Source: Elusimicrobia bacterium GWA2_51_34 (GTDB taxonomy: Bacteria; Elusimicrobiota; Elusimicrobia; Elusimicrobiales; UBA9959). From it: a stretch of DNA of 64,000 bases. How positions within the stretch are numbered: position 1 is the stretch's first letter; each line of letters starts with the position of its first letter. The notes beneath the pieces were generated by a model. It saw only the letters and a program-made list of their open reading frames with translations, made no database searches and was not told the DNA's origin. The position numbers and the translations under genes were made by a program. The stretch lies in assembly GCA_001799565.1 (NCBI GenBank), contig MGTS01000042.1, positions 1,016-65,015 of the forward strand, written 5' to 3'. Of the stretch, positions 11,680 through 61,934 are shown piece after piece.

Positions 11680-11680
11680 A

Positions 11681-40532: not shown

Positions 40533-42302
40533 ATGCCCGATAACGAACTTGAATTTGACCTTTCTTACTATCTGGACCTTATACTCCGCCGGCGCTTGGT
40601 GGCACTGTCGGCCTTTATTTCCGTGGTTATTGTTACCGCTCTTGTAACCTTTAACACCCGCCCGGTGTACCAGGCCAGCGCCCTGCTTGTTATAGAAAAA
40701 GAGCGCGGCAATAATACAATTTACCAGGGCGGCCCCACGGTGGAGCGCGGTAACGACGATTATTACCAGACGCAGTACAAGTTGCTTAAAAGCGAAGCTC
40801 TGCTTAAAACAGTGCACAAACGCCTTAACCTGGACAGCGTCTCAGAATTTGCCGGTGTGTACGGCTATCGCAGGCTGCTTGGGCCGGTGGCAATTGCTCC
40901 GGTGCCCCGCAGCCGTTTGGTATATGTAAAAGTTAACTCTTACGACCCCCTGCTGGCAGCAAAAATAGCCAATACAGTGGCCACTGTTTTCATAGAACAG
41001 AATCTGTCAAACCAGCTTTTTATTTCCAAAGATGTACTTAACGCCCTGCAAATAGAAAGGTCCGGCAACCAAAGCCGCGCTATTTATGAATCCCTTCCGG
41101 CTGTGGTAAACAATACTCTCATACAGGACCTTAAGCGGGAAACCGCAAAATTACAGGCGCAGGTGGCGGAGGCCTCCGGCCGCTATACACCAAGGCACCC
41201 TCAACTGTTGGCCATGGCAGCCACTTTGCAGACCTTGCAGCGGCAGATAAAAGAAGAGACCGACAAGGTTATCCAAAGCCTTAAAATAGACCTATCCGGC
41301 CAGCTTATGGGCAATAACATACGCCTTATAGACGCGGCCGTACCGCCGCTGGGCCCCATAAAGCCGCGCAAGATGTTTAATATGCTTCTTTCACTTATAG
41401 GCGGCCTGGTACTGGGCCTTTTTGCAGCTGTAGCGGTAGACTTTATAGACCAAACAGTGCGTACACAGGAAGACGTGGAAAATAAGCTGGGCCTGCCCTT
41501 CCTGGGCGTAGTGCCCTTCACCCGCCAGACCAAAGAACAGACCGCCTATCACCACCTGCTGCTGCCGGAGCATTCGCTTATAGGCGAATCCATACGCAAT
41601 CTGCGCACCATGGTGCATTTCGCCGAGGTTGGGCGCAAAAACAAAGCTTTAATAGTCAGCAGCACTGTGCAGGGTGAAGGCAAAAGCTATGTAGCCGCCA
41701 ATCTGGCCGTGGCTATAGCACAGGCGGGGGAGAAGGTTTTAGTAATGGACGGCGACCTGCGCCGATCCAACCTGCATAAACTTTTCGGGGTGTCAAATTC
41801 AAAAGGGCTCAGCGACTTTCTGGCCTCAGGTAATAATGTGGAAGAGTTGCGTCCCCATATTCAGTCCTCCGATGTCTCCAACCTTTCAATTTTAACCTGC
41901 GGTCCGCGCCCGCCCAACCCGGCGGAACTGCTTAACACGCCGCGCCTTTCCGCCGCGCTGGCCTGGGCCCAGCAGGCATACGACCGCGTTATAGTGGACT
42001 GCCCGCCCATGTTCCCCATAAGCGACGCCCTGCTTTGGGGTAAGCACATCAACAGCTGCATTTTTGTGGCCGCCTTCGGTAAAACCCGCGTGCCGCTTAT
42101 TAAAACAGCAGCGAAACGCATGACTGCCGCCGGCCTGAAAATACTCGGCACGGTGGTCAACATGTCTAAATTCGGTGGGCTTTCATACTCTTACTACGGC
42201 TATTACCAGTACGACTATCATTACGGCCCGGATAAACCGGAAACCGAAAAGCACCAGGAACCGCGCCATAAAAAGCCTACCCCTAAAAAAGAATTGGTGT
42301 AG
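40533..42302 (+). CDS. wzc: Polysaccharide co-polymerase / tyrosine autokinase (Wzc/GumC-like)
   Basis: N-terminal Wzz-like domain with two TM segments. The BY-kinase domain has Walker A VQGEGKS, Walker A' VLVMDGDLRR and Walker B VIVDCPP. The C-terminal tyrosine cluster is YSYYGYYQYDYHYG. Confidence 0.85.
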   Translation: MPDNELEFDLSYYLDLILRRRLVALSAFISVVIVTALVTFNTRPVYQASALLVIEKERGNNTIYQGGPTVERGNDDYYQTQYKLLKSEALLKTVHKRLNLDSVSEFAGVYGYRRLLGPVAIAPVPRSRLVYVKVNSYDPLLAAKIANTVATVFIEQNLSNQLFISKDVLNALQIERSGNQSRAIYESLPAVVNNTLIQDLKRETAKLQAQVAEASGRYTPRHPQLLAMAATLQTLQRQIKEETDKVIQSLKIDLSGQLMGNNIRLIDAAVPPLGPIKPRKMFNMLLSLIGGLVLGLFAAVAVDFIDQTVRTQEDVENKLGLPFLGVVPFTRQTKEQTAYHHLLLPEHSLIGESIRNLRTMVHFAEVGRKNKALIVSSTVQGEGKSYVAANLAVAIAQAGEKVLVMDGDLRRSNLHKLFGVSNSKGLSDFLASGNNVEELRPHIQSSDVSNLSILTCGPRPPNPAELLNTPRLSAALAWAQQAYDRVIVDCPPMFPISDALLWGKHINSCIFVAAFGKTRVPLIKTAAKRMTAAGLKILGTVVNMSKFGGLSYSYYGYYQYDYHYGPDKPETEKHQEPRHKKPTPKKELV

Positions 42303-42470
42303 TCATCCTGCGGCCAAGTCGCCTATTCGGTCCACTTTTGTATTGACTTACATACCTGGACATAAAAAAGCTCGTACATAATAAGAAAGTAGCAAAGAAG
42401 GCGGCAGGCAAAAACAATTCAAACCGTGATGTCAATTATCTAGGTGTTTATACAACATCTCCCGCACTCT

Positions 42471-44270
42471 ATGACTGAACACAAAAAAACTCCCCTGGGG
42501 CTCCCTACACTGCTGGCCCATCTTTTCAAACATATCAGTCTTCGTCGGCGCTATCAATTCCTTTTTATGCTCGGCTTGATACTGGCCAGTTCCGCTGCCG
42601 AGGTTGTCAGCCTAGGCGCTGTTCTGCCGTTCATCGGTATTCTTACCCAGCCGGAAAAGGTTTTCAATTACCCGATACTGGCCAGCTTTATTAAAATGCT
42701 GGGGATCACCTCTCCGTCGGGCTTGATTCTACCCCTCACAGCGGCTTTCGCCATGTCAGCCATAGTAGCCGCAGGATTACGGCTATTATTGCTGTGGGTC
42801 AGCATCCGCTTAGCAAACGCTGCCGGTGCAGATCTAAGCATCGAAGTCTACCGCCGCACGCTTTACCAACCCTATAGTGTGCATGTTGCCCGCAACAGCA
42901 GTGAAATTATCAGTGGGATTACCCAAAAAGTCGGAACTGCAACAGCCGTGTTGATATCTTTAGTTATTGTAGTTAATTCAGTTGTGCTGTTTATCGCCAT
43001 CCTTTTAACATTGCTCGCAATTGACCCTTTAGTGGCCACCTCGGCAATCCTAGTATTTGGAACAGGATATGGGATTATTGCCGGGCTAATGCGTCGCCGC
43101 TTGGTACGGAATAGCCAATGTATTGCGCGGCAACAGCCACGGGCTGTTCAAGCTCTACAAGAAGGGTTAGGTGCTATTCGTGACGTACTCCTGGATAGCG
43201 CACAGGCAGTTTATTGTGATGTGTATAATAAAGCTATCCGGCAATGGTTTCGAGCGAGCAGCGGGAATACTTATATACATCAATTCCCACGCTACGTTAT
43301 GGAAGCAATGGGCATGGTTATGATCGCAGGTTTAGCGTATACTTTAGGCCGGCGCCCGGGCGGGATGCAGGCTGCTATGCCTATAATGGGGGTACTGGCG
43401 CTTGGTGCGCAGCGCATACTGCCTCTGATGCAGCAATTGTATTCCAATTGGACGGTTGTGGTTGGAAGCTATTCCTCGTTGAATGATGTTCTTGATCTGC
43501 TTGCTCAGCCTCTGCCTAATGATGCTGATCTGCCGGTGCCAGCGCCACTTGTGTTTCAAGATAGCATCAGTTTTAAAAATGTCAGCTTCCGGTATGGCAA
43601 CTCTGGTCCATTAGTGTTGGAGGAGCTTAATCTGGTGATCCCAAAAGGAGCCAGAATTGGGTTTGTTGGCAGTACCGGAAGCGGTAAGAGCACCGCGCTG
43701 GATTTACTTATGTCCTTGCTTGAGCCTTCGCAGGGACAGATATTAGTGGACAACCGGCCTATAACAAGTGACCTTCGTAGTGCCTGGCAGCGCGCTATTG
43801 CTCATGTGCCGCAAAGCATATTCCTTTCTGACGCCACCATCGCCGAAAACATAGCTTTTGGTGTGCCGCCTGCGGAGATAGATAGTGTTCGCGTTCGGCA
43901 AGCCGCCACCCAAGCGCATATAGCAGAATTTATAGAAAGCAGGCCCGAAGGATATAGCACCTTAGTAGGTGAACGCGGTATGCGGCTCAGTGGTGGACAG
44001 CGTCAGCGAGTGGGCATAGCCCGGGCACTATATAAGCAGGCAACCGTGCTGGTTTTTGATGAAGCTACCAGTGCACTGGACAATGTCACTGAAAAAGAGG
44101 TGATGAATGCTATTGAAAGCCTAAATAAAAACCTGACCATATTTATGGTAGCTCATCGCTTTACTACACTCCGGAATTGCGACACAATTGTGCAGTTAGA
44201 CCGTGGACATATTCTAGCTACTGGGTCTTACGAACATTTTAAAAAGATATCTTCACTTTTCACGGCCTAA
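42471..44270 (+). CDS. ABC exporter, fused permease/ATPase (MsbA/PglK-type)
   Basis: Six N-terminal TM helices. It has Walker A GSTGSGKST, signature LSGGQRQR and Walker B VLVFDEATSALD. GTG at 42444 or ATG at 42471. Confidence 0.85.
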   Translation: MTEHKKTPLGLPTLLAHLFKHISLRRRYQFLFMLGLILASSAAEVVSLGAVLPFIGILTQPEKVFNYPILASFIKMLGITSPSGLILPLTAAFAMSAIVAAGLRLLLLWVSIRLANAAGADLSIEVYRRTLYQPYSVHVARNSSEIISGITQKVGTATAVLISLVIVVNSVVLFIAILLTLLAIDPLVATSAILVFGTGYGIIAGLMRRRLVRNSQCIARQQPRAVQALQEGLGAIRDVLLDSAQAVYCDVYNKAIRQWFRASSGNTYIHQFPRYVMEAMGMVMIAGLAYTLGRRPGGMQAAMPIMGVLALGAQRILPLMQQLYSNWTVVVGSYSSLNDVLDLLAQPLPNDADLPVPAPLVFQDSISFKNVSFRYGNSGPLVLEELNLVIPKGARIGFVGSTGSGKSTALDLLMSLLEPSQGQILVDNRPITSDLRSAWQRAIAHVPQSIFLSDATIAENIAFGVPPAEIDSVRVRQAATQAHIAEFIESRPEGYSTLVGERGMRLSGGQRQRVGIARALYKQATVLVFDEATSALDNVTEKEVMNAIESLNKNLTIFMVAHRFTTLRNCDTIVQLDRGHILATGSYEHFKKISSLFTA

Positions 44271-44338
44271 TATTTGATGTCTCTGTAAATACTGCATAAC
44301 TGCCTGCCGGTGTTTAGTGCAAGAGTAGGTTGCAAAAG

Positions 44339-45616
44339 ATGGAACAGATTTATTCAGAAGCTATTCAATTAAACACGGTAATTAGTTTAGGTGTGGCAAT
44401 ATTGTGTTTGTTATTGGTTTTTAAAGGACGGCCAGAAATATCTACAGGTATTTATCTGGCAGGAATGTCATGGTGTGTTATTTTAAAAATAGGAAATATA
44501 GCTCAGACATGGATATTTTTAGCAACCATGTTCGCCGCGGCTTTTGTATTTTATCTTAAAGAAGCCCGGTTTCGCTTGCCTAAAAGAGACCGTTGGATTA
44601 TTCCATGGCTTTTACTTTGGTGGATTTGGACACTTACCCTGCTCTTCTTCTCTATACCGGACAACACGACGCTTATTCGAGCATTTATTCTTAGCACCGT
44701 CCTGCCAATTCCGGTAGTCTTGCTATATTCGCAAAGTTTAGAGCGTGTTGGATCCTTTTCACTCGCGTATGTGCTTACCACTGTATTGGGAGGATTTGTG
44801 GTTTTGCAATACATAGCTGCTAACTATTCAAATCTAATTATAAATCCTTTGACAGGGGCTTATGGAATGGGCCGTTTGCCCATACGAAATTATCATACAT
44901 TCGCCTATGTGTATGGGGTATCAATTATTATGCTGATAGCTTTGTTCCAACAATCACGCCATTTAATCACGCGCATCTTTTATGCTTGTGCAATGGTTTA
45001 TTGTTTATATTTCCTATACTTTAGTAATTCAAGGCAAACGCTTTTAGCGACCTTTATTGCCTGTATACTATTCCTTTATTGGCTGTTTCGTTGCAACTCT
45101 GCAACAAGTAATAGGTTAAGGCACCTTACTAAAGGCAAGGTATGGTTATTGTCTGCAATTGGCGGCTTTACGCTGTGGTTTGTGTATGCAAAGAATCCAG
45201 TTATTGTGTTGCGGAACTTTGCGACAGCAACGGAAGCTGCATCTAGTATTGGTGAAGAAAGTCGTTTTGTGAGATGGAGCACGACGGTGCAAACGATTTT
45301 AGATTCAAATTTCCTTGGCACAGCATATGAAGCGGGGAATGTGCATAATTTCTTTTTGTCAGTGTTAGCCAACGAAGGTATAATAGGCTTTCTTTTAATG
45401 TCTGTGTTTTTTGTGTTCTCATTTCGGCAAATGAAAAATGTCTGGTCAGTAAAGGAGATTAGCGAGGTCACCATCTGGCGAATGGCATTTTGTTGCATTT
45501 TTCTTTCTACTTTTATTCATGCCCAATTTTCGGGCGATAATCTCTGTGCCCCGGAACTTTTCTGGTCAGTTGTGTTTTTATGGTACTCAAAGCAAGATAC
45601 GGGCCAATTGGATTAA
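44339..45616 (+). CDS. O-antigen polymerase/ligase family membrane protein (Wzy-like)
   Basis: About 10 TM segments and AT-rich codon usage. It has a late loop with GNVHNFFLSVLANEGIIGFLLM (Wzy_C-like). TTG at 44330 or ATG at 44339. Confidence 0.65.
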   Translation: MEQIYSEAIQLNTVISLGVAILCLLLVFKGRPEISTGIYLAGMSWCVILKIGNIAQTWIFLATMFAAAFVFYLKEARFRLPKRDRWIIPWLLLWWIWTLTLLFFSIPDNTTLIRAFILSTVLPIPVVLLYSQSLERVGSFSLAYVLTTVLGGFVVLQYIAANYSNLIINPLTGAYGMGRLPIRNYHTFAYVYGVSIIMLIALFQQSRHLITRIFYACAMVYCLYFLYFSNSRQTLLATFIACILFLYWLFRCNSATSNRLRHLTKGKVWLLSAIGGFTLWFVYAKNPVIVLRNFATATEAASSIGEESRFVRWSTTVQTILDSNFLGTAYEAGNVHNFFLSVLANEGIIGFLLMSVFFVFSFRQMKNVWSVKEISEVTIWRMAFCCIFLSTFIHAQFSGDNLCAPELFWSVVFLWYSKQDTGQLD

Positions 45617-45693
45617 ATAGCAGGTTCTTACGTGGTTGCTAGACTCTATATTGTGGGGTAGCGTTTTAAACTTTAGACTTAAGGTTCTCCAAT

Positions 45694-46827
45694 ATGAAAC
45701 TAGATATTCATGAAAACAAACCCATTCATATTACTCAACCCGACTTGCCTCCTTTTGGGGAGTTTACTGCATCCCTAAAGCAAATATGGGGCAATAAATG
45801 GCTAACCAATAGTGGCCCCTTCCACCAAGAGTTTGAGCAGGCGATAGCCAAATATTTAGGGGTTAAATATATTTCTGTTTTTTCAAATGGGACGCTTGCT
45901 TTGGTGACTGCCTTGCAGGCATTGCGTATTACAGGAGAGGTAATCACGACCCCTTTCAGTTTCGTGGCTACTACTCACTCTATCTGGTGGAATAATATTA
46001 AGCCTGTTTTCGCCGATATTGAACCTAATTATTTCAATCTCGACCCCGGAAAAGTTGAAGCTGCTATTACTCCGCAAACCACTGCTATTATGCCGGTCCA
46101 TGTGTATGGCAACCCGTGTGATGTCGCAAAACTGCAGCAAATAGCCGATACCTATGGGCTGAAGCTCATTTATGATGCTGCTCACGCGTTTGGGGTTAAA
46201 AAAGATGATAATTCAATACTTAACCATGGTGACCTGGCAATACTTAGCTTCCATGCGACAAAAGTATTTAATACCATCGAGGGAGGCGCCATTGTTTGCC
46301 ATAATGCAAAAATGAAGCAGAGAATAGATTATTTAAAGAATTTTGGATATGCCGGGGAAAACACTATTATAGCTCCGGGTATTAACGCAAAAATGAATGA
46401 ACTTCAGGCTGCTTACGGATTGTTGCAGCTCAAATATGTGGACGGCCATATAGCTAAACGTAAAATTATTTCCGAAAAATACAGAGCACAATTGGGTGGC
46501 ATGCAGGGAATCCGGTTGCTGCCTGATATCAAGGCGGTGCACCACAATTATTCTTATTTTCCAGTTCTGATTGATTCGCGAAAGTTTGGGAAGACCAGGG
46601 ATGAAGTATACGAAGAACTTAAAAAGCACAACGTGTTTTCAAGAAAATACTTCTATCCACTTATCAGCCAGTTCCCGACATACCGAGGGCTACCTTCGGC
46701 AACGCGGGGAAATCTTCCAATTGCAGAGAAAGTTACAAAGGAAGTTCTATGTCTGCCGATTTATCCAGCTCTTGATTTAAGCAGCGTTGACCTTATTTGC
46801 GGTATTATCAGGAAGTCTATTTCATGA
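45694..46827 (+). CDS. DegT/DnrJ/EryC1/StrS family sugar aminotransferase
   Basis: 377 aa. DAAHAFG...SFHATKVF contains the PLP lysine, with family-typical N-terminal HITQPDLPP... Confidence 0.85.
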   Translation: MKLDIHENKPIHITQPDLPPFGEFTASLKQIWGNKWLTNSGPFHQEFEQAIAKYLGVKYISVFSNGTLALVTALQALRITGEVITTPFSFVATTHSIWWNNIKPVFADIEPNYFNLDPGKVEAAITPQTTAIMPVHVYGNPCDVAKLQQIADTYGLKLIYDAAHAFGVKKDDNSILNHGDLAILSFHATKVFNTIEGGAIVCHNAKMKQRIDYLKNFGYAGENTIIAPGINAKMNELQAAYGLLQLKYVDGHIAKRKIISEKYRAQLGGMQGIRLLPDIKAVHHNYSYFPVLIDSRKFGKTRDEVYEELKKHNVFSRKYFYPLISQFPTYRGLPSATRGNLPIAEKVTKEVLCLPIYPALDLSSVDLICGIIRKSIS

Positions 46828-47519
46828 AGGTAGCTGTAATGCAGCCCTATTTCTTTCCCTATATTGGCTATTTCCAGCTTATTTCGTCGGTTGATTTGTT
46901 TGTATTGTATGACAATATAAAATACGCAAAAAAGGGCTGGATCAACCGTAATCGGATGCTTCAAAACGGCAAGGATATGATATTCTCGTTGCCGTTAAAA
47001 AGAGACTCGGATTCTTTGGATGTGCGCGGCAGGGAGTTGGCAACGGATTTTGATTGTACTAAATTTCTTTCCCAAATCAGGGGTGCGTATCTCCGTGCAC
47101 CATATTTTAAAGAGACCTTCCAGCTAATTGAGACTGTGATGCAGTATCCAGAGCATAATCTGTTTCGATTCCTCTTCAACTCGATCACCAAGGTATGTGA
47201 ACACCTTGGGATTTCGACGCAGATCAAAATTTCCTCAGACATCAGCATTGACCACGCACTGAAGAATCAGGACAAAGTGCTCGCCTTGTGTGGCGCGGTC
47301 AAGGCAAGCACGTATATTAACGCTATAGGGGGCATTGAACTTTACAAAAAAAGTGCGTTCCAAAAGAGGAGTCTAGAGTTAAAATTCATCAAATCTAAAC
47401 CACTTGATTATGTCCAGTTTGACAACCAGTTTGTTCCGTGGCTTTCCATCATTGATGTGATGATGTTTAATCCCAAGAGCAGGATTGTTCAGATTTTGCA
47501 GGAGTACGAGCTTGTATAA
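46824..47519 (+). CDS. WbqC family protein
   Basis: MKVAVMQPYFFPYIGYFQLI is the hallmark WbqC N-terminus. The start overlaps the upstream stop (ATGA). Confidence 0.75.
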   Translation: MKVAVMQPYFFPYIGYFQLISSVDLFVLYDNIKYAKKGWINRNRMLQNGKDMIFSLPLKRDSDSLDVRGRELATDFDCTKFLSQIRGAYLRAPYFKETFQLIETVMQYPEHNLFRFLFNSITKVCEHLGISTQIKISSDISIDHALKNQDKVLALCGAVKASTYINAIGGIELYKKSAFQKRSLELKFIKSKPLDYVQFDNQFVPWLSIIDVMMFNPKSRIVQILQEYELV

Positions 47520-47538
47520 TTGAAAGAGTAAACAAACC

Positions 47539-48882
47539 ATGAAAGTTTTATTAATCCAGCCACCCAATAACGAAGAAACAATGACCGGGTTGTTGCCGGA
47601 AGGTTATGCAAAAAAAGGCCGCTCAATTTCTCCTCCATTAGGATTACTTTATCTTGCCAGCTTTATCAAACAGAAGCATGATGTGGTGGTTTTGGATATG
47701 ATTCTAAGCGGGCAGACTGTTCAAGATTTGCCGGCCATATTAAAGACAATTAAACCGGACATGGTTGGTATTACTGCTGTGATAGGTTTGTGGGCCTCAG
47801 CACTTACTATTTTTAAAAAAATAAAAAGCCTTGCCCCCTCAATTTATACAGTGGTCGGAGGTCCGAATGTCACATATTTCACTAAAGAGACTTTCTCACA
47901 TAAGGAAATAGATTATTTCATAGTCGGGTACGGTCAAAGGCCACTTATGGATCTTTGCAATAAGTTGGCAAGCGGCAAAACTGTCGAGGGAATTGAGAAT
48001 TGTTTCGTACAAGGGGCCAGTTATACTAGATTTGATGTTGTGTATTCTGACGAATGCAACTTAGATAAATTCCCATTGCCAGACAGAACATTTACTCCAC
48101 ATCTGCAATATCGCATTCCTTTCTGCCCTGAAAATCCAGCGACTACAATGATTACAAGCATGGGATGCCCGTATAAGTGTGCATTCTGTACGGCTGCGCG
48201 CCCACCTGTATATATTCGAGACACGGGGGGAATTATTGATGAATTGGCGGAAATTCACAGATTAGGCATTAAATCTGTCCTTTTTCAGGATGAACTGTTT
48301 ACTGTGAACGGAAAACGTGTTAAAGAGGTATGCGAGGCTATAATAAACAGGGGTATACACCTCCACTGGACTATAAAATCCCGCATTGACAGAATAGAGC
48401 CATGGATGCCCGAACTTATGAAAAAGGCCGGTTGCTTCAATATTCATTTCGGGATAGAGTCCGGAAATGATACCACGCTTAAGCGCATGAAGAAGGGGTA
48501 TACACGGGATAAAATAAGAGCCACAATTAACCTTGTAAAAAATACAGGTCTTTCTGCTACAGGCAATTTTATGCTGGCCTACCCAGGTGAAAGTAAAGAA
48601 GATATTCTTCAAACAATTAATTTTGCAAAGGAATTGGATCTGAATCTCGCTCAATTTATGCTTACTATTGATTCGCCAGGGTCGGAATTATTTGAAGAAG
48701 CAATTATGGTAGGTAGAAGGACCCATAACTATTTGAGTGAATATGTCAGCCATCCAGACCCGAAGAATAGTGATCTTCCAACAGTACTTTTTTCGGCATC
48801 GGATAGTTTTTCACATGATGAATTGCAATCTTTTTTGCAGCTTGCTTACACACGCACAAAGACACTCTTTAACATAGGTTAA
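47539..48882 (+). CDS. B12-binding domain radical SAM enzyme (class B, methyltransferase-like)
   Basis: N-terminal Rossmann-like B12-binding region (KVLLIQPP...PPLGLLYLASF...), then the CPYKCAFC (CxxxCxxC) radical SAM cluster motif. Confidence 0.75.
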   Translation: MKVLLIQPPNNEETMTGLLPEGYAKKGRSISPPLGLLYLASFIKQKHDVVVLDMILSGQTVQDLPAILKTIKPDMVGITAVIGLWASALTIFKKIKSLAPSIYTVVGGPNVTYFTKETFSHKEIDYFIVGYGQRPLMDLCNKLASGKTVEGIENCFVQGASYTRFDVVYSDECNLDKFPLPDRTFTPHLQYRIPFCPENPATTMITSMGCPYKCAFCTAARPPVYIRDTGGIIDELAEIHRLGIKSVLFQDELFTVNGKRVKEVCEAIINRGIHLHWTIKSRIDRIEPWMPELMKKAGCFNIHFGIESGNDTTLKRMKKGYTRDKIRATINLVKNTGLSATGNFMLAYPGESKEDILQTINFAKELDLNLAQFMLTIDSPGSELFEEAIMVGRRTHNYLSEYVSHPDPKNSDLPTVLFSASDSFSHDELQSFLQLAYTRTKTLFNIG

Positions 48883-48905
48883 GTTACGGGGCGAAATATG
48901 TTCCT

Positions 48906-49484
48906 ATGGTAAATAATTTCAATATCACAGTCTGCGCTTCCGGAAACGGGGGGAACCTCCAAAGTTTAATAGACAATCAGGGGAAAATTGGGATCAGAAT
49001 TAATATGGTAATTGTTGATAGAAAGTGTGGGGCAATCGATAGAGCTGTTAATAGCAATATCCCCTACAAAATGATATTAAACAACCAGTACGTCGACAAC
49101 TTTTTAAAAGAAATTGATGCCAATATACCACCGAATACTGATCTGGTGGTGTTGGCTGGTTTTTTCCCAGTTTTAGATGTTACATTTTGTAAAAAATGGA
49201 AGAATAAGATTATAAACACACACCCATCATTGCTACCGAAATATGGCGGGAAAGGCATGTATGGTGTCCGTGTGCAGGAAGCTGTTATGCGAGCTAAAGA
49301 AAAATATGCCGGCTGTACCGTTCACTATGTTACGCCCGAGATTGATGGGGGGGCAATAATTCTGCAAAAAGTAATTGAGGTTGACTACACACAGACACCC
49401 AGGGAATTAGGCGGAAGAATACATATGGAAGAAAATAAATTGCTGGTCAATGCCATAAGCCTAATCAAGAATTCGAAAATCTAA
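48906..49484 (+). CDS. PurN-like formyltransferase
   Basis: NTHPSLLPKYGGKGMYG...HYVTPEIDGGAIILQ mirrors the GAR transformylase catalytic motifs (HPSLLP, D of the DxG region). 192 aa. Confidence 0.7.
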   Translation: MVNNFNITVCASGNGGNLQSLIDNQGKIGIRINMVIVDRKCGAIDRAVNSNIPYKMILNNQYVDNFLKEIDANIPPNTDLVVLAGFFPVLDVTFCKKWKNKIINTHPSLLPKYGGKGMYGVRVQEAVMRAKEKYAGCTVHYVTPEIDGGAIILQKVIEVDYTQTPRELGGRIHMEENKLLVNAISLIKNSKI

Positions 49485-49499
49485 TAAGGTGATAATATT

Positions 49500-50468
49500 A
49501 TGTTTAGATGGAGAAAATATGGGCTTATTTTTAACCCAACAGATTTTAAAGACAGGCCGGAATGGATAAATGAATATGCACAAGCCCCTAATGCGATTGT
49601 GTTTGAAAAATTCGTTAGAGTGTTTTTTTGTTGTCGTCCCAAGCCCGATGCGAAAGGTCAATTTGTGAGCTATTGCGCTTTTGTGGACCTGAATAGGCAT
49701 GACTTGTCTAAAATAATTAATATCGCAACAAAACCCGTGCTAGAGTTGGGAGCATTGGGAACATTTGATGAATTCGGCACCTATCCCGTATCCGTAATAA
49801 AGGAGTCTGATGAAATTATTGCGTATTACGGCGGCTGGACAAGGTGTGAGTCAGTTCCTTTTAATATTTCACTTGGATGTGCTAAAAGCAAAGACAATGG
49901 GGAATCTTTTGCGAAAACCGGCGTGGGCCCGGTTTTGTCTCATTCCTTGGATGAACCGTTTGTTGTCACATCACCCAAAATCCGGAAATATAATAACTCA
50001 TGGTATCTTTTTTATACCTCAGGCCAAAAGTGGTTTATTTATAATGGCAGGGCTGAAATAGTTTATAAGTTGCGATTAGCGACCTCAAGTGATCGTCTAA
50101 CCTGGAAAAAGGTAAATAAAAACATAATCACTGACAAGCTTGGGCCTGATGAAGCACAAGCATGCCCGGATGTCATATATGCGAACGGAAAATATCACAT
50201 GTTTTATTGCTATAGGCAGGCGGTCGACTTCAGAGTAAATACAAACAATACCTACAGGATAGGTTACGCTTTTTCTAACGATTTAATTAACTGGACGCGA
50301 GACGACTCAAAAGCCGGCATTGATATCTCAGAGAGCGGCTTTGACAACGAAATGGTTGCTTATCCCACCGTGATTGAATTGGATCGCAAATACTACATGT
50401 TTTATTTGGGGAACAAGGTTGGGAAAGCTGGTTTTGGCTTGGCTGAATTAGAAGGGGATCTGAAATAA
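49500..50468 (+). CDS. Uncharacterised beta-propeller (GH43/32/130-superfamily-like) protein, paralog 1
   Basis: 322 aa. It has repeated W/Y-rich blade pattern. It aligns along its full length with the next ORF (WRK.G.IF.P...YAQ/KSP.A.VF...GAFDE.G..P...W.R.D.K.GID.S...). Confidence 0.4.
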   Translation: MFRWRKYGLIFNPTDFKDRPEWINEYAQAPNAIVFEKFVRVFFCCRPKPDAKGQFVSYCAFVDLNRHDLSKIINIATKPVLELGALGTFDEFGTYPVSVIKESDEIIAYYGGWTRCESVPFNISLGCAKSKDNGESFAKTGVGPVLSHSLDEPFVVTSPKIRKYNNSWYLFYTSGQKWFIYNGRAEIVYKLRLATSSDRLTWKKVNKNIITDKLGPDEAQACPDVIYANGKYHMFYCYRQAVDFRVNTNNTYRIGYAFSNDLINWTRDDSKAGIDISESGFDNEMVAYPTVIELDRKYYMFYLGNKVGKAGFGLAELEGDLK

Positions 50469-51421
50469 TGAAGTGGAGAAAATTAGGTAAGATATTTGAT
50501 CCGGCCAGATACGGCTTGGCGGACGGCTGCACGGAATATGCTAAATCCCCGCAGGCGGTAGTGTTCGACAATTATATTCGCATATACTTTTCTTCGCAAA
50601 AAAGAATAGATGAAAAATATCTTAGCTATGTGCAATTTATAGATATAGATAAAGAGTTTAAAAATATTTTAAATATATCAAAAGAAACACCGATTAAACT
50701 GGGCAACCTTGGTGCGTTTGATGAACACGGAATTTTTCCATTTAATGTGATTAAATATCAGGGAAAGCTCCTTGCGTATATTTGTGGGTGGAGTAGGCGG
50801 AAAAGTGTTTCAATAGATATGGCAATAGGAGCGGCAAAAAGCGAGGATGGCGGAACGACATTTTCCCGGCTTGGCGACGGCCCGGTACTGACAGCATCGC
50901 TACATGAACCATTTCTGGTCGGTGATGGGTTTGTTCGTGTCTATGACGGTGTTTTTCATATGTGGTATATATATGGAAATGCATGGAGGGCTTCTCATCC
51001 TGGCAGCAATCCGGATCGGACCTATATAATTGCGCATGCGACTTCCGCTGACGGAATTAACTGGATAAAAGAGGGGCGCAACATAATCGAGCAGAAATAC
51101 CCGCTGGAATGCCAAGCGTTACCTACAGTCATAAAAATAGAAAACAGGTATCACATGTATTTTTGCCGGAGACACTCATTTAATTTTAGAAATAATCCAG
51201 ATTATGCTTACAGGCTTGGCTATGCATATAGTGACGATCTTACGAATTGGACGCGAGCAGACGAAAAGTCGGGCATTGATACTTCTAAAGATGATTGGGA
51301 TTCGGATATGATATGCTACCCTAATCTTTTTGACTGTGATGGGAAGACCTATTTGCTTTATAATGGCAATGAGTTCGGCAAATATGGATTCGGAATAGCT
51401 GAATTGATGGAGTGGGACTAA
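50468..51421 (+). CDS. Uncharacterised beta-propeller (GH43/32/130-superfamily-like) protein, paralog 2
   Basis: 317 aa. Its start shares one base with the upstream stop (taATG). It is collinear with 49500-50468. Confidence 0.4.
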   Translation: MKWRKLGKIFDPARYGLADGCTEYAKSPQAVVFDNYIRIYFSSQKRIDEKYLSYVQFIDIDKEFKNILNISKETPIKLGNLGAFDEHGIFPFNVIKYQGKLLAYICGWSRRKSVSIDMAIGAAKSEDGGTTFSRLGDGPVLTASLHEPFLVGDGFVRVYDGVFHMWYIYGNAWRASHPGSNPDRTYIIAHATSADGINWIKEGRNIIEQKYPLECQALPTVIKIENRYHMYFCRRHSFNFRNNPDYAYRLGYAYSDDLTNWTRADEKSGIDTSKDDWDSDMICYPNLFDCDGKTYLLYNGNEFGKYGFGIAELMEWD

Positions 51422-51425
51422 TATT

Positions 51426-52175
51426 ATGAATTCTAAAAGAGATTACAACCAAGAAAAAGAAGACACAACAGACGGAAAGTATTTCCATAGCTTTGATTTC
51501 AATGTGATGCATCCTTATATGCTCAAATCTTTTATCCCGTTCTTCAATAAAGGCAGTATTCTGGAACTAGGATGTTTTAAGGGGGATTTTACAAAAAGGT
51601 TGCTACCGTACTTTTCAGATATCACATGTGTTGAAGCTTCGGCGGCTGCCTTCGGTAAGGCGCAAGACAAGTTGGGCGCGCAAGTGAATATGATTAATGC
51701 TCTTTTTGAAGATGTTGTTCTGCCTGCTAAGTATAACAACATTATAATGACGCATGTTCTGGAGCATCTGGATGATCCGATTAAGGTGCTTAAGCGAGTA
51801 AATGATGAGTGGCTCTCTGACAACGGAAAATTTTTTCTAGTTTGCCCCAATGCCAACGCCCCTTCCAGGCAGATTGCTGTTAAAATGGGTTTGATACCCC
51901 ACAACTCCGCTGTGCTTCCTACTGAAAAAGAACATGGGCACAGAATCACATACTCGTTTGACACTTTAGAAAGAGATGTCAGAAGGGCTGGATTAAAAGT
52001 GGTCCATCGCTCGGGGATATTTTTCAAAGCACTGGCAAACTTTCAATGGGACAAACTTTTAAATACTGATATTATTTCAAAAGAATATTTGGAAGGCTGC
52101 TATGAACTTGGACAGCAGTATCCAGATTTATGTTCCAGTATTTTTCTCTTATGCGAGAAGGGAAAGCAGCTTTAG
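51426..52175 (+). CDS. Class I SAM-dependent methyltransferase
   Basis: Motif I ILELGCFKGDFT, then THVLEHLDDP typical of the Methyltransf_11/23 type. Confidence 0.75.
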   Translation: MNSKRDYNQEKEDTTDGKYFHSFDFNVMHPYMLKSFIPFFNKGSILELGCFKGDFTKRLLPYFSDITCVEASAAAFGKAQDKLGAQVNMINALFEDVVLPAKYNNIIMTHVLEHLDDPIKVLKRVNDEWLSDNGKFFLVCPNANAPSRQIAVKMGLIPHNSAVLPTEKEHGHRITYSFDTLERDVRRAGLKVVHRSGIFFKALANFQWDKLLNTDIISKEYLEGCYELGQQYPDLCSSIFLLCEKGKQL

Positions 52176-52198
52176 GAACTATAAGCGCAAAGAATCCG

Positions 52199-53146
52199 AT
52201 GAATATTATATTTAAGTCAATCCGCCTGGGTAGACGAATCGCAGCTAAAATAGGCATGCCTCAATTAAATCGCGGGCGGACGTATGCCGGGGCAGAATAT
52301 TCGGGAGAAGCGGCCTCTGAATTGATTAAAAACACTTTGCTACAAAAAGAACCTTGCATGATAGCCCGGTTTGGCGCCGCAGATGTATTTGCGGCGGTAA
52401 ATTACATTGACAGAAATAATTATAAAAAGGTGTCGGACATCCTAAAGTATGTGTTAGGCAAAAAAGTATTTCTTTATTGGTCTTCACAAGGCGCAGGCTA
52501 TTTCCCGGAAGATATTGGGAAGGTTGAAGATTACATGCGGCTGTTATTCAATGATATGCGATTTGTTGATATTTTGGGGTCATGGTGGAGAGAAGAAATG
52601 TTTTTGCAAAAAGAATTGTCGCAGGCTGTCAAAGTTAGGCTCCCGGATTTGGAGCCTTATTACCACACAAACCCCTGGTCCATTGTACTGAAAAATAAAA
52701 GAGTGCTTGTAATTCACCCCTTTGAAGAGAGCATAAAAAGTCAATACGCAAAAAGAAAGTTATTATTTAAGGATAATAATATCCTCCCTGATTTTAAACT
52801 ATTGACGATAAAAGCAGATTACTCTTTAGCCGAGACTAAAACAATTTGCACTGATTGGATTAATGTCTATGAACCTATTAAAGAAAAGATTGATCAGACT
52901 GATTTTGACATAGCCATTATAGGCTGCGGCTCATGTGGGTTTAATTTGGCGGCACATATCAAAAGAATAGGAAAAAAAGCTGTTGTTTTAGGTGGCGCAA
53001 CACAAATTCTATTTGGAATTAAAGGAAAGAGGTGGGCGGACCATCCTGTTATATCAAAATTATTTAACGAGCACTGGGTGTATCCTCAGCCCAGTGAAGT
53101 GCCGATAAACTATAAACAAGCAGACCAGGGCTGTTTCTGGCAGTAA
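52199..53146 (+). CDS. Hypothetical protein (possibly a GT-D/DUF1792-like glycosyltransferase)
   Basis: ORF track 52130-53146. The ATG at 52199 avoids overlap. MIARFGAADVFAAVNY vaguely resembles the DUF1792 RFGDGE region. Weak. Confidence 0.3.
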   Translation: MNIIFKSIRLGRRIAAKIGMPQLNRGRTYAGAEYSGEAASELIKNTLLQKEPCMIARFGAADVFAAVNYIDRNNYKKVSDILKYVLGKKVFLYWSSQGAGYFPEDIGKVEDYMRLLFNDMRFVDILGSWWREEMFLQKELSQAVKVRLPDLEPYYHTNPWSIVLKNKRVLVIHPFEESIKSQYAKRKLLFKDNNILPDFKLLTIKADYSLAETKTICTDWINVYEPIKEKIDQTDFDIAIIGCGSCGFNLAAHIKRIGKKAVVLGGATQILFGIKGKRWADHPVISKLFNEHWVYPQPSEVPINYKQADQGCFWQ

Positions 53147-53203
53147 AGATATTATCAGGCGACCTTGGAAATGCAGTAACGTGTCAATGACTAATAAAAT
53201 TAT

Positions 53204-54295
53204 ATGGGTGACTTTGCAGAAAAAAACACAATACTGATTTTCCCAGCGGGAATGCCGCGTTCGCTTGAGTATCTGGATCGGGCGTTGAGGGAAGGCAGGA
53301 ATGTAATTGGTGCATCTTCACTTGCACATGATCCATCACGGGAACGCTATCCCGCCTGGTTACATCTTCCCTATATTACGACCCTTCAATTCAACGATGC
53401 GCTCATACAAGCCATTGCCGATTTCAATATTGGCGAAATTTACACGCCGAATCTCGTCGTTTGGAATTACCTTAATCTACGACTAAAAGAACTTGCCCCG
53501 GAAGTTGCCTTGGTTAATAGTTCTCCAATTGATACAGAGCTTTCACCATACCGCAAGGCACAACAATTTAGCCAATCGTTAATTGAACAACCAGTATTAT
53601 TGGCGTCTGGGGACGTGCCCAAGGCAGCCATGTCTCTCATTGAGATTGCTTCTTTATTTCGCCACGCAGAATTGATACCAGGCATGTGTAGTCATGATAA
53701 AATTAAAGCCTTGTATGAAATTTCACGCCGCAGCCCGACCGGAGATGTAGTTGAAATCGGAAGCTGGTGGGGCAAGTCTGCTTTCGTTCTAGCCCGATTG
53801 GCATGTTGCTATGGAATAGGGAAATTACTGTGTATTGATCCATGGTCAAACGAGCATTTAATTCAAGGCGATGAAAATGGATTGGTTGATAGCGTCCCAA
53901 TTAGTGCCGATGAAGCGTTCACCGTTTTTAAAATTAACCTGTTGCCATATGCCAACGGCAAGCTAAACTATTTAAGAATGCCCTCGGTTACTGCATTGGA
54001 ACATTACCTTAAACACCCGATTGTGCAAACAGCCACGTTTGGTGAAACCGTTTACGCTAGTCATATTGCCATACTTCATATAGATGGAAACCATAGTTAT
54101 TCCAATGCCAGCGCTGACATTACATCGTGGAGCAATTTGGTTATTCCTGGGGGATGGATTATTATTGACGACTATATCTGGCCTTACGGAGATGGCCCCA
54201 AAAAGGCTGGGGATGAGTTTTTGGAAAAGAATTATCACAAATGCGCTCTTTCATTTGTGATGGGTGATGCCTTGTTTATTAAATTGTCTTACTAA
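53204..54295 (+). CDS. Class I SAM-dependent methyltransferase (Methyltransf_24/TylF-like C-terminal domain)
   Basis: GDVVEIGSWWGKSAFVLA (motif I) and HIDGNHSYSNASADITSW...GGWIIIDDY. The N-terminal ~160 aa are unassigned. Confidence 0.6.
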   Translation: MGDFAEKNTILIFPAGMPRSLEYLDRALREGRNVIGASSLAHDPSRERYPAWLHLPYITTLQFNDALIQAIADFNIGEIYTPNLVVWNYLNLRLKELAPEVALVNSSPIDTELSPYRKAQQFSQSLIEQPVLLASGDVPKAAMSLIEIASLFRHAELIPGMCSHDKIKALYEISRRSPTGDVVEIGSWWGKSAFVLARLACCYGIGKLLCIDPWSNEHLIQGDENGLVDSVPISADEAFTVFKINLLPYANGKLNYLRMPSVTALEHYLKHPIVQTATFGETVYASHIAILHIDGNHSYSNASADITSWSNLVIPGGWIIIDDYIWPYGDGPKKAGDEFLEKNYHKCALSFVMGDALFIKLSY

Positions 54296-54437
54296 TAAAT
54301 TACATTGCGATGACATTTTTAGAACACTAGCAGGCGATAACACAGTCACCATAAAAGCATATTAATTTGGATTTGCCAATGATGGAATTGTCTATTTGAA
54401 ACTCTACTAATTTAGAGTTTGTTTATCAAACATAATC

Positions 54438-55472
54438 ATGGAAAACAAAATACGAATTACCTTTGGCATAATAGTGTTGAATGGTGAGCCCTTCACACGT
54501 TATAATTTGCGAGCACTTTACCCTTTTGCACATCAGATTATCGTTGTGGAAGGGGCATGTCGTGCCGCAGAACAGGTCTCTAGCCCGAATGGACATTCAA
54601 AAGATGGCACCCTAGAGACTTTGCGCCGTTTCAAGCAGGAAGAAGACCCAGATAGGAAGATTACAATTGTCACTGCAGAGGAAGAGGGGCATCCTGATGG
54701 CTTTTGGCCGGGAGAAAAGAATGAAATGTCCCAGGCATACGCAAAACGTGCCACCGGTAACTGGCTTTGGCAGGTGGATGTGGATGAGTTCTACCAGCCT
54801 GAAGATATAGCAGTAGTTGTCGGAATGCTGAAAGCAAACCCTTGTATCAGAAAAGTTTGCTTTCGCGTTTTAACTTTCTGGGGCGGCCCTGACTATGTAG
54901 TAGACGGAGTATACTTGCAGCGCGGAGGCCACAATTTCCATCGTCTTTTCGCTTGGGATGAAGGCTATCGATATACTACCCATCGGCCTCCAACGGTTGT
55001 TGATAAAGAGGGCAAGGACCTCTGTAATATCAAGGCTGTTAGTGCCAGTGAACTGGCAGGGAATGGCGTATTTATGTATCATTATGAACTTCTTTTCCCC
55101 AAACAGGTTCAGGAAAAATGTTCTTATTACGCCAAGCAGTCGCCTGAATTAAAACAGCTGAATAACTGGGCGAAGGATTGTTATTTTAAGCTTCAGCATC
55201 CTTACCGTGTTCACATGGTTTACCACTATCCAAGCTGGCTTGAGCGATACCGTGGGGCCTCCCCACCTGCTGCGCTGCAGATGATGGAGGCCATTAAGCT
55301 TGGGAAGCACCCTGGCGTTGAGTTGCGTCAAACAGAGGACGTTAACAAATTACTGAAATCTCCATTATATATATCTGGGCGCAGTTTTTTAAAAATTGTC
55401 TCAATACTCTATAGTGCCTATTTTCATGCCCGCGTATCTCTGGGCAGATGGAAACGGTGCTGTTTCGACTGA
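54438..55472 (+). CDS. Glycosyltransferase, GT2-like
   Basis: The N-terminal ITFGIIVLNGEPF...IIVVEGA and QVDVDEF (DxD-like) resemble GT-A fold enzymes. Confidence 0.5.
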   Translation: MENKIRITFGIIVLNGEPFTRYNLRALYPFAHQIIVVEGACRAAEQVSSPNGHSKDGTLETLRRFKQEEDPDRKITIVTAEEEGHPDGFWPGEKNEMSQAYAKRATGNWLWQVDVDEFYQPEDIAVVVGMLKANPCIRKVCFRVLTFWGGPDYVVDGVYLQRGGHNFHRLFAWDEGYRYTTHRPPTVVDKEGKDLCNIKAVSASELAGNGVFMYHYELLFPKQVQEKCSYYAKQSPELKQLNNWAKDCYFKLQHPYRVHMVYHYPSWLERYRGASPPAALQMMEAIKLGKHPGVELRQTEDVNKLLKSPLYISGRSFLKIVSILYSAYFHARVSLGRWKRCCFD

Positions 55473-55488
55473 ATAGTGGGGTCTGAGT

Positions 55489-56430
55489 ATGCAAATTGTC
55501 TTTATTCACCGGGGGCGTAGCTGGTACCTACCGTATGCCTTATATCAGGCAAAAGCTGCCAGTCCGGGCTCCGATATTATTCTACTTGGTGATGGTTTTA
55601 CGGGCGAAGGCATTCAAGTCCATTCTCTTCAGAACCTCCAGACCCCAAACATACAAAAATTTAAAAAACACTATATTCATATGTCATCAAATACTGTGGA
55701 GTTTGAATCATTCTGCTGGTTGAAGTACTTCTATCTACTGGAGTATATGCGTAAAAATCAGGTGAAATTTGTTTTATACCTTGATTCTGATGTTTTGCTA
55801 TATAGTTCGATTGAAGAGATAAAAAAAGCTTACCCTGAAACATTCTGGAGCAGCGGTTGTGGCGTATCAATGCCGAAACAAGATTTTGAGTCATTTACAT
55901 GGTGCGCATCCGGTCATATCAGCTATTGGACTTATGAATTACTGGAAGAATTTTGTGAATTCATTCTAAATAGTTTCATTGACAACAAATACCTAGGATT
56001 ATACAGAGGAAAGTTTAACTGGCATTTAGCCAAGAAGAAACCCGGTGGGATATGCGATATGACGACAATTTATCTTTTCTGGAATGAAAATAAAGATCGA
56101 GTCCAGAATATGTTAATTAATCACAACGGGAATGTGTTCGACGATAATATTAACACAGCGACAAATTATTACAAAAATGAGTTCGTTTTCGATTCAGGCA
56201 CTAAAAAAGTAAAATTTATTGACGGACATCCACACTTTCTTTCAGCAGATGGGACAAACACCTCGGTTCGGGCCCATGCTTTACATTTCCAAGGTGTCGG
56301 AAAAAAATACATGCCAGATTTGTATACAGGAAGACCGTTAAGAGGGATAACATCTAATAACATTCTGAGCGCTTTGCGCGCAATTAAACGAATAGCGAGA
56401 AATAGACTAAATAGATACTTCGGAATCTAG
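55489..56430 (+). CDS. Hypothetical protein, putative glycosyltransferase (DxD)
   Basis: 313 aa in a glycan locus. YLDSDVLLY is a DxD-like motif. I recognise no family. Confidence 0.3.
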   Translation: MQIVFIHRGRSWYLPYALYQAKAASPGSDIILLGDGFTGEGIQVHSLQNLQTPNIQKFKKHYIHMSSNTVEFESFCWLKYFYLLEYMRKNQVKFVLYLDSDVLLYSSIEEIKKAYPETFWSSGCGVSMPKQDFESFTWCASGHISYWTYELLEEFCEFILNSFIDNKYLGLYRGKFNWHLAKKKPGGICDMTTIYLFWNENKDRVQNMLINHNGNVFDDNINTATNYYKNEFVFDSGTKKVKFIDGHPHFLSADGTNTSVRAHALHFQGVGKKYMPDLYTGRPLRGITSNNILSALRAIKRIARNRLNRYFGI

Positions 56431-56442
56431 ACGATTGTTGTA

Positions 56443-57150: not shown

Positions 57151-57156
57151 ATTATT

Positions 57157-58116: not shown

Positions 58117-58179
58117 ATTATTGACTGCCCTAGAGACAGACTGCTTGCTTCAGGCGGATGGATTGTTTGTGCGTAAATC

Positions 58180-59118: not shown

Positions 59119-59124
59119 ATATTT

Positions 59125-60021: not shown

Positions 60022-60055
60022 CTTTTTATATATTATGCTTTGAGATATAAACGAT

Positions 60056-60889: not shown

Positions 60890-60948
60890 TTTTATTTTCG
60901 CATGGCTTATCCCTTTTTGGCAAGATGCATAGTAAAGGGAATTTAAAT

Positions 60949-61932: not shown

Positions 61933-61934
61933 TT

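Follow-up and report, generated by a model that had tools for sequence, protein, structure and literature searches.

What a bacterium displays as surface antigens, phage receptors and flagellar glycans is determined by amino-sugar tailoring cassettes; N-acyl viosamine, for example, is a flagellin glycan of Burkholderia. The viosamine island of Pseudomonas syringae (vioA, vioB, vioR, vioS, vioM and vioT; PMC3927599, PMC4622738) combines a DegT-type aminotransferase, an N-acylation module and an S-adenosylmethionine (SAM)-dependent methyltransferase to place an N-acyl, O-methyl 4-amino-4,6-dideoxyglucose (viosamine, or Qui4N) on the cell surface or flagellin. The islands of Acidovorax avenae K1 (Fgt, Fmt, Fcs and Fst; PMC4622738) and Burkholderia cenocepacia (FlmQ; PMC4462625), whose glycans are partly defined, bring together a methyltransferase, a carbamoyl-phosphate-synthase (CPS)-like ATP-grasp protein, a sugar transaminase and a flagellin glycosyltransferase, and the Arn pathway pairs an aminotransferase (ArnB) with an N-formyltransferase (ArnA) and a transferase to the lipid carrier undecaprenyl phosphate (ArnC). 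Here we analyze a cassette in a 64,000-nucleotide (nt) stretch of Elusimicrobia bacterium GWA2_51_34 (MGTS01000042.1; hereafter the window, to which all window coordinates refer) that encodes a DegT-type aminotransferase (AT), a WbqC-family protein, a B12-binding radical SAM enzyme, a PurN-like formyltransferase (FT), two paralogous beta-propeller proteins (Prop1 and Prop2) and two methyltransferases (MT1 and MT24). With a probability of about 0.7, we read this cassette as a widespread, horizontally mobile sugar-tailoring unit for surface glycans and flagella, which makes an activated, N-acylated, methylated 4-amino-4,6-dideoxyhexose of the viosamine type.

The cassette differs from each of these systems in its gene content. 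The P. syringae island, which we set beside it by function and not by orthology, lists no WbqC protein, propeller pair, formyltransferase or radical SAM enzyme; the Acidovorax and Burkholderia islands have no WbqC or propellers; and the Arn pathway operates on another sugar scaffold with another type of formyltransferase and offers no counterpart of WbqC, the propellers or the methyltransferases, the cassette for its part lacking a deformylase and ArnT. Although the logic of amino-sugar tailoring is itself known, WbqC, the propeller pair, a PurN-type formyltransferase and a class B radical SAM enzyme are thus new relative to viosamine-type and Arn systems, and the cassette possibly holds new enzymology. 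The searchable literature on WbqC, on GH130 together with O-antigen and on DUF377 contained no description of this cassette, in agreement with the initial annotation of the window, which was aware of no characterized pathway with this set.

We fetched 80 genome loci around Prop1 homologues from other genomes, spanning at least 12 phyla, and searched them with the window proteins. Homologues of Prop2 were present in all 80, those of WbqC in 77, of MT1 in 76 and of AT in 71; FT and MT24 were each found in 12, and the radical SAM gene in none of these 80 genome loci. Clustering of all open reading frames (ORFs) in the loci recovered a canonical order of AT, WbqC, Prop1, Prop2, a cap gene (a GNAT protein of about 150 residues) and MT1, and in each of the 82 loci covered by our gene-order and cap-slot counts Prop1 lies 5' of Prop2, the extrapolated distance between the two being -7 to +24 nt in 81 loci and 66 nt in one. 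This linkage is far beyond chance, and the conserved core comprises five genes (AT, WbqC, Prop1, Prop2 and MT1) plus one swappable cap slot. The initial annotation had described six tightly linked genes, AT through Prop2, and their reading frames, family assignments and overlaps (ATGA between AT and WbqC at 46824-46827, TAATG between Prop1 and Prop2 at 50466-50470) were all confirmed, with intergenic gaps within the block of at most 23 nt. As a functional unit, however, these six genes were not borne out: the annotation missed MT1, and the conserved block extends 3' to MT1 and, in the formyl variant, to MT24.

Homologues of the cassette proteins number in the thousands and come from at least 12 phyla, with rhizobial plasmids and candidate-phyla bacteria among their sources, and identity between phyla is mostly 50-75%. 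A search with Prop1 returned 5549 homologues (E <= 1e-5) at 58-72% identity across phyla; the 120 top-ranking ones listed, from very different phyla, are 61-72% identical. All of the cassette proteins are soluble, none having a signal peptide or transmembrane segment. The cassette is unusually widespread and unusually conserved, and three of its five core proteins (WbqC and both propellers) stand outside characterized amino-sugar pathways. Once solved, it would allow several large "hypothetical" families to be given a function, and a new nucleotide-sugar reaction would probably come to light.

The cap slot holds alternatives. Among the 82 loci, 12 have FT only, 65 have the GNAT only, none has both and five have neither (Fisher p = 7.5e-11), so that FT, which had been taken as a fixed member, is a minority alternative to the GNAT. 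The five loci with neither are of two types, one with a 3-hydroxybutyryl-CoA dehydrogenase, a PseH-like GNAT and a second MT1 copy, the other with a CPS-like ATP-grasp protein and a metallophosphoesterase. The exclusivity of FT and GNAT, together with these replacements, therefore points to a constant core with one slot that chooses the acyl group capping the amine: most genomes would add an acetyl cap by means of the small GNAT, a minority that includes the window would add formyl, and a few would use 3-hydroxybutyryl or an acyl group made by ATP-grasp. Three of the propeller clusters at 50% identity consist of a propeller with a C-terminal GNAT (P0371, P0389 and P0409; about 470 residues), and these fusions tie the propeller step to the capping step. 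With its acetyl, formyl, 3-hydroxybutyryl and ATP-grasp versions, the slot amounts to a natural experiment on the pathway.

FT shares the Formyl_trans_N fold, the Asn/His/Asp triad and the transfer from N10-formyl-tetrahydrofolate to a primary amine with both PurN and the sugar N-formyltransferases (the ArnA N-domain, the VioF/WbtJ/FdtF type and PseJ), and departs in some respect from each. Against the PurN model TIGR00639 it scores 148.1 bits, 2 bits below the equivalog cutoff of 150.1, and it sits in a glycan context; against the models for sugar formyltransferases (ArnA and dTDP-Qui4N types) it scores 29 and 23 bits, with cutoffs of 777 and 238, and as a single domain of 192 residues it is without the C-terminal nucleotide-sugar-binding domain that most of those enzymes possess. 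The earlier judgement that FT resembles PurN and not the longer sugar enzymes thus stands. Aligned to human glycinamide ribonucleotide (GAR) transformylase (1zlx), FT keeps the catalytic residues N106, H108 and D144 as well as E173, has a phosphate loop reading SGNGGNL where 1zlx has SGTGSNL, and replaces K170 with His; we predict from this alignment that it is catalytically competent, and despite its low scores against the sugar models it may work like a sugar N-formyltransferase. Its context is the cap slot of a glycan cassette, and not purine synthesis, in the 12 genome loci as well as in two further loci described below (L095 and L096; loci are numbered with the prefix L), and a protein identical to that of the window is present in Elusimicrobia metagenome-assembled genomes.

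The radical SAM enzyme matches PF02310 at 53 bits (cutoff 32.1) and PF04055 at 88.5 bits, and its CxxxCxxC motif reads GCPYKCAFC, which assigns it by sequence to the class B (cobalamin-dependent) radical SAM enzymes. Its best NCBIfam match is the PhpK family (151.6 bits, with a cutoff of 600), every other match being far below cutoff, and its best match in the PDB is AprD4, a non-methylating dehydratase, in the core region only. Orthologues form about 90 clusters at an identity of at least 40%, and in six of the eight contexts that we sampled the gene lies inside the cassette, accompanied by the GNAT in L086, L094 and L097, by ATP-grasp in L085 and by the formyltransferase in L095 and L096; in the other two it lies outside. 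L096, a metagenome contig, repeats the order of the window exactly at about 78-80% identity, and L095, from a Microgenomates genome of the candidate phyla radiation, encodes WbqC, both propellers, the radical SAM enzyme, FT, MT1, a GT2 and a DegT protein in another order. The initial annotation had named co-occurrence outside this genome as a test of its reading, and given the recurrence in L095 and L096, an objection that the genes do not co-occur elsewhere fails. The radical SAM enzyme is an optional but recurrent add-on that is independent of cap type, and its target is therefore argued to be the sugar itself or a substituent that does not vary, not the cap; by analogy with its class, C-methylation is plausible. 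One further observation concerns L097, a metagenome contig with a GNAT-type cassette that has three B12-radical SAM genes (175-1359, 7001-8341 and 10960-12348) along with NeuB and a CMP-sugar synthetase-like gene, which suggests heavy radical SAM tailoring of several sugars in one cluster.

Of the two methyltransferases, MT1 is the best-conserved member of the cassette (mostly 62-77% identity, with 48-50% in three loci) and starts 4 nt 3' of Prop2. MT24, with identities of 53-63% in its 12 loci, seven of which also have FT, travels mostly with the formyl variant, and it lies directly 3' of MT1 in the betaproteobacterial flagellin islands.

AT gives a hint of the sugar on which the cassette may act. 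Its PF01041 match spans residues 23-372 of 377, its translation contains the motif SFHATK with the lysine that binds pyridoxal phosphate, and its best matches are to DesI both in NCBIfam (318 bits, with a cutoff of 650) and among PDB sequences (2po3, E 9e-68). Judging by this similarity, AT probably aminates C4 of dTDP-4-keto-6-deoxyglucose. In about 10 loci RmlA is embedded in or adjoins the cassette, and a remote variant in Rhizobium sp. N1314 (24-29% identity) groups a WecE-type transaminase with WbqC, methyltransferases, an acetyltransferase, one propeller, a GT2 and a flippase. The DesI likeness, the embedded RmlA and the WecE-type variant are the grounds on which we link the cassette to a dTDP-sugar.

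Copies of the cassette elsewhere occupy several settings. In the flagellar regions of Betaproteobacteria and of one Kiloniellaceae genome (L007, L017, and also L006, L009, L015, L019 and L063), it adjoins a protein of 734-1216 residues with TPR repeats and a GT41-like part, flagellin genes, flaG and fliD. In Betaproteobacteria it is the formyl version that lies in these regions; in L007 (12103-19086), for example, motA and motB are followed farther on by AT, WbqC, FT, Prop1, Prop2, MT1, MT24, a TPR + GT41-like protein of 1193 residues, two flagellin genes, flaG and fliD, and both this copy and L017 have the flagellar genes, flagellin and flagellin glycosyltransferase that define a flagellin island, their place next to flagellin genes being shared with the P. 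syringae viosamine island. Such a neighborhood implies glycosylation of flagellin with the sugar of the cassette; TPR-type flagellin glycosyltransferases have been described in Burkholderia and genes for an N-acyl viosamine flagellin glycan in Pseudomonas (PMC4462625, PMC3927599, PMC4622738), and the TPR-glycosyltransferase of L007, like the ATP-grasp variants of the cassette (L031 and L085), resembles the Acidovorax and Burkholderia islands. On plasmids of Rhizobium leguminosarum, as at 288157-294112 of NZ_CP050088, AT, WbqC, Prop1, Prop2, a GNAT, a methyltransferase and a GT2 form an isolated operon with unrelated genes on both sides, so the cassette behaves as a self-contained decoration unit, and this seven-gene operon offers a tractable system. 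Among the cultured bacteria that carry the cassette are Variovorax sp. E3, Polaromonas jejuensis, Cupriavidus sp. TA19, Methylomonas defluvii and Paenibacillus sp. 481. In many Bacteroidota and other loci, a GT2 lies 3' of the cassette, or a GtrB/ArnC-like GT2 with GtrA, the latter recalling the Arn pathway, and flippases lie nearby.

In the pathway that we propose, RmlA and RmlB encoded elsewhere would supply dTDP-4-keto-6-deoxyglucose, AT would transaminate C4 in the manner of DesI, and WbqC and the propeller pair would then act, in one or more steps, on an intermediate whose amine is still free, a position before capping that we favor because of the gene order and the propeller-GNAT fusions. 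FT, whose triad is evident by sequence and whose acceptor would be this amine, would N-formylate it with N10-formyl-tetrahydrofolate, MT1 and MT24 would methylate with SAM, and the B12 radical SAM enzyme would add one more group, probably a C-methyl to judge from its class. Locus-specific glycosyltransferases would finally place the sugar on a surface polysaccharide in the window and on flagellin in Betaproteobacteria. In the window, the likely product is a viosamine-type sugar with an N-formyl cap and several methyl groups; the earlier proposal of a methylated amino-dideoxy sugar bearing N-formyl is, in our view too, the most reasonable one.

Several points weigh against this viosamine-type reading. 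Whereas the gene set, its conservation, the exclusivity of the caps, the contexts and the folds are there to be seen, we infer every chemical step. P. syringae needs neither WbqC nor propellers for its N-acyl, O-methyl viosamine, so that these three core proteins are left unexplained and the product may be more elaborate or different. Gene calls that run on from one overlapping gene into the next could in principle account for the propeller-GNAT fusions. Because the AT orthologues found in the 80 loci fall into two identity classes, one at about 60% and one at about 41-45%, the stereochemistry of the sugar may differ between lineages, and because no RmlA or RmlB is encoded among the ORF translations of the window, both the nucleotide and the sugar scaffold are assumed.

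The propellers are the members to which the best-surviving rival explanation applies. An AlphaFold2 (AF2) model of Prop1 (pLDDT 91.9) is a five-bladed beta-propeller, the best Foldseek matches of which are BT_0996, GH32 enzymes and GH130 mannoside phosphorylases (TM-score about 0.7, 16-18% identity). Prop1 is thus predicted to have a GH32/43/130/137-like fold and, having no export signal, to be cytoplasmic. At 50% clustering the family has 910 representatives (E <= 1e-30), nearly all of them stand-alone proteins of about 315 residues, and the Prop1 and Prop2 families have in common some 70 columns conserved at 95% or more, rich in Arg, Asp, Glu and His (including R40, D63, D90, E91, R115, E218, H233, R245, D269 and D282). 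A few relatives are giant multi-propeller proteins: P0361 (5844 residues, 41 matched stretches), P0471 (2300 residues) and P0425 (1935 residues, with GH130 matches). Like the GH130 phosphorylases and the GT108 and dual-activity GH130 mannosyltransferases, for which glycosyl transfer from GDP-mannose by a GH130-type fold is documented (PMC12814180), the propellers have five blades, lie in the cytoplasm and may serve in biosynthesis with a phosphorylated sugar as donor. Such glycosyltransferases are recognized by transfer from an NDP-sugar or sugar-1-phosphate and by a loop L2 shaped to let the nucleotide in (PMC12814180); the likeness of the propellers to them is at the level of the fold. Together with weak profile matches of both paralogs to beta-1,2-mannobiose phosphorylase, many conserved Arg and His residues that could bind phosphate and the presence of only one canonical glycosyltransferase in the flagellin islands, these likenesses would fit inverting glycosyltransferases or phosphorylases of the GH130/GT108 style that add one or two residues, from NDP-sugar or sugar-1-phosphate, to build a short conserved oligosaccharide.

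We hold such a function to be conceivable but on balance unlikely. Prop1 and Prop2 score 22.5 and 15.7 bits against Pfam GH130 (PF04041), below the cutoff of 26, and the catalytic Asp of the GH130 EDPR motif aligns to Ser158 or Tyr288 in blade-shifted hidden Markov model alignments, and in a colinear blade register would fall on Tyr95 of Prop1 (F90 in Prop2). Unlike GH130 and GT108 enzymes, the propellers form an invariant paralog pair in an amino-sugar operon; their identity is 58-66% in flagellin and polysaccharide contexts alike, as one would expect if the substrate were a constant small molecule more than if the acceptors varied; a GT2 usually lies 3' of the cassette; and the fusion to GNAT suggests consecutive steps on one soluble substrate. 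A match to GH32 (PF00251, 34 bits with a cutoff of 22.1) is likewise blade-shifted and covers only profile positions 15-89, and the positions that should correspond to the Asp of NDPNG, the Asp of RDP and the Glu of EC(P) read AQAP, TSP and ACP. More generally, the blade-start positions matching the GH32/GH43/GH130 carboxylates read AQAP, TYP, TSP, ACP and AYP, and the canonical catalytic Asp and Glu residues therefore appear to be replaced by Ala, Tyr, Ser and Cys, as judged by motif correspondence and not by superposition.

WbqC scores 221 bits against its family profile (PF08889, cutoff 21.3, with 215 of 218 profile positions covered), and its AF2 model has a pLDDT of 84, but neither sequence nor profile searches of the PDB gave a match, and a fold search of the PDB returned nothing significant (best E 0.1, TM-score < 0.4). 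The non-significant hints that it did return are to catalytic domains of class I aminoacyl-tRNA synthetases (probability 0.1-0.4). Five unnamed viral proteins in BFVD (A0A6J4EHY4, A0A6B9SW24, A0A411BJX6, A0A6B9STS8 and A0A1B0Z0N5) have WbqC-like predicted folds, with TM-scores of 0.57-0.82 and E values down to 2e-14, so viruses encode the WbqC family too. Across unrelated contexts in Bacillus, Proteus and Aliiroseovarius, WbqC adjoins enzymes that make or expose an amine, that is, DegT aminotransferases or PIG-L/LmbE deacetylases; its 323-residue neighbor in Proteus mirabilis was considered as a propeller homologue and rejected (hhalign probability 0.2). The founding WbqC is that of Escherichia coli O121, whose O antigen contains Qui4N(N-acetylglycyl). 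When E. coli genomes were searched by blastn with the wbqC region of Proteus, the sole match was a glycosyltransferase fragment unrelated to it. In Streptomyces, the tRNA-ProX operon holds WbqC together with a divergent paralog of prolyl-tRNA synthetase (ProRS), a GT4, LmbE, an unusual tRNA-Pro and murG (PMC10404621, Fig. 2), and by analogy the WbqC family may link aminoacyl-tRNA to amino-sugar chemistry.

Such a link would be direct if WbqC joined an amino acid (e.g., glycine or alanine), possibly from aminoacyl-tRNA, to the 4-amine of the sugar and the cap enzymes acted on the resulting alpha-amine; FT would then formylate a glycinamide, much like PurN with its substrate GAR, and the aminoacyl side chain would be modified by the radical SAM enzyme. 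Besides the Streptomyces operon with its ProRS paralog and dedicated tRNA, the N-acetylglycyl Qui4N of the O121 antigen, the sugar-amine-generating neighbors of WbqC and the synthetase-like fold hints, this would be in keeping with the strong preference of FT for the PurN model over those for sugars, with its retained triad, phosphate-loop motif and E173, and with the usual cap GNAT, which is nearest to the N-alpha-acetyltransferase RimI (61 bits, below cutoff); by a hand count, moreover, the terminal amine of GAR is nine bonds from the phosphate, and so is that of a dTDP-Qui4N-glycyl sugar. Nevertheless, we consider this route doubtful. The likeness to synthetases is not significant, the GNAT and PurN similarities all lie below family cutoffs, and among 60 cassette loci that we scanned no tRNA or synthetase gene occurred in the cassette, the only tRNA genes being three scattered ones. 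In the 3-hydroxybutyryl variant the GNAT is PseH-like, and the direct target of PseH is a sugar amine; ATP-grasp ligases that stand alongside WbqC in some variants would be redundant with a WbqC ligase; and the two propellers would be left without a role.

A combination of these ideas is a more speculative prospect still, and we think it quite improbable: WbqC would be an enzyme of a new fold that N-aminoacylates amino sugars, possibly from aminoacyl-tRNA; FT would have been recruited because GAR is mimicked by its new substrate, a phosphorylated sugar bearing a glycyl- or aminoacyl-amide; alkylation of the aminoacyl group would fall to the radical SAM enzyme; and the propellers would be a non-hydrolytic offshoot of GH32/43/130 enzymes with a reaction type undescribed for nucleotide sugars. 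If true, flagella and polysaccharides would receive N-(acyl-aminoacyl) deoxy-amino sugars by a pathway of very wide distribution. Finally, that the propellers are hydrolases that trim or recycle polysaccharide (the initial annotation had raised trimming) and FT a stray housekeeping purN merely lying in the cluster, as the weak GH32/GH43/GH130 matches, the near-cutoff PurN score and the NCBI name "glycosylase" for the propeller might suggest, is effectively excluded by localization, context and exclusivity: lacking signal peptides and transmembrane segments, the propellers are not where the polymer is, carboxylates appear to be absent from their canonical catalytic positions, they co-occur strictly and in fixed order with biosynthetic genes in more than 80 loci, and FT, which flagellin islands also contain, fills one and the same slot in 12 unrelated genomes without ever accompanying the GNAT.

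The layout of the cassette in the window is given in Table 1.

Table 1. Cassette genes and interspersed gene in the window of Elusimicrobia bacterium GWA2_51_34.
Feature	Position	Strand	Basis
AT, DegT_DnrJ_EryC1 aminotransferase	45694-46827	+	PF01041, E 3e-101
WbqC-family protein	46824-47519	+	PF08889, E 2e-65
B12-binding + Radical_SAM (class B) enzyme	47539-48882	+	PF02310 + PF04055
FT, PurN-like formyltransferase, 192 residues	48906-49484	+	Formyl_trans_N PF00551, E 1e-34
Propeller 1 (Prop1)	49500-50468	+	weak GH32/43/130 profile matches; AF2 model
Propeller 2 (Prop2), Prop1 paralog	50468-51421	+	41% identical to Prop1; weak GH32/43/130 matches
MT1, class I SAM methyltransferase (Methyltransf_23 / NodS-like)	51426-52175	+	Pfam
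Weak GT-D-fold-like protein	52199-53146	+	PF22882 23.5 bits, below cutoff
MT24, Methyltransf_24 / TylF-like methyltransferase, N-terminal extension	53204-54295	+	Pfam

The cassette is part of a low-GC island that runs from roughly 44 kb to 62 kb of the window (about 40-44% GC, compared with 50-58% in the flanks), densely packed with genes on the + strand, and the low GC of 44000-62000, which holds the whole glycan cluster, is consistent with horizontal acquisition. On the 5' side of the cassette lie genes for a beta-barrel porin, two Wzy_C-like proteins, Wza, a Wzc-type kinase and an ABC exporter, and on its 3' side glycosyltransferase-like genes and more methyltransferases; with these neighbors, the setting is a surface-polysaccharide cluster. 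Flagellar genes, flagellin and a flagellin glycosyltransferase do not adjoin the cassette in the window, where it sits in this Wza/Wzc/ABC/Wzy-like cluster. The weak GT-D-fold-like protein between MT1 and MT24, its start as called in L001, has a homologue by tblastn in one of the 80 loci and is probably a locus-specific glycosyltransferase outside the conserved cassette.

The 44000-62000 island is unusually rich in methyltransferases: MT1 and MT24 are joined by a third at 56443-57150, and 60056-60889 is a probable further one, with an LDWGGGTG motif and no Pfam match. A second amino-sugar pair lies at 60925-63074 (+ strand), where the gene for a short-chain dehydrogenase/reductase (SDR) epimerase or dehydratase (60925-61932) overlaps that of another DegT aminotransferase (61929-63074, starting with GTG), which shares no more than about 28% identity with AT. 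Two different membrane proteins of the Wzy_C or O-antigen-ligase type are encoded in the one cluster (36086-37816 and 44330-45616, + strand), and since a Wzc-type kinase (40533-42302) is accompanied there by an MsbA-like ABC exporter (42444-44270), the export mix is an unusual one. Farther upstream are a 1197-residue single-chain pyruvate:ferredoxin oxidoreductase (6555-10148, + strand) and, downstream of it, two DEAD-box helicase genes close to one another (25067-26374 and 27178-29001, + strand), ordinary housekeeping content that is consistent with an anaerobe. At 18441-24824 (+ strand), a stretch with a GC content of about 46-47% and strong AT skew encodes four tandem paralogs of 490, 570, 530 and 538 residues, which overlap by 4 nt and have a weak GDSL/SGNH-lipase-like region at the N-terminus followed by many TPR repeats.

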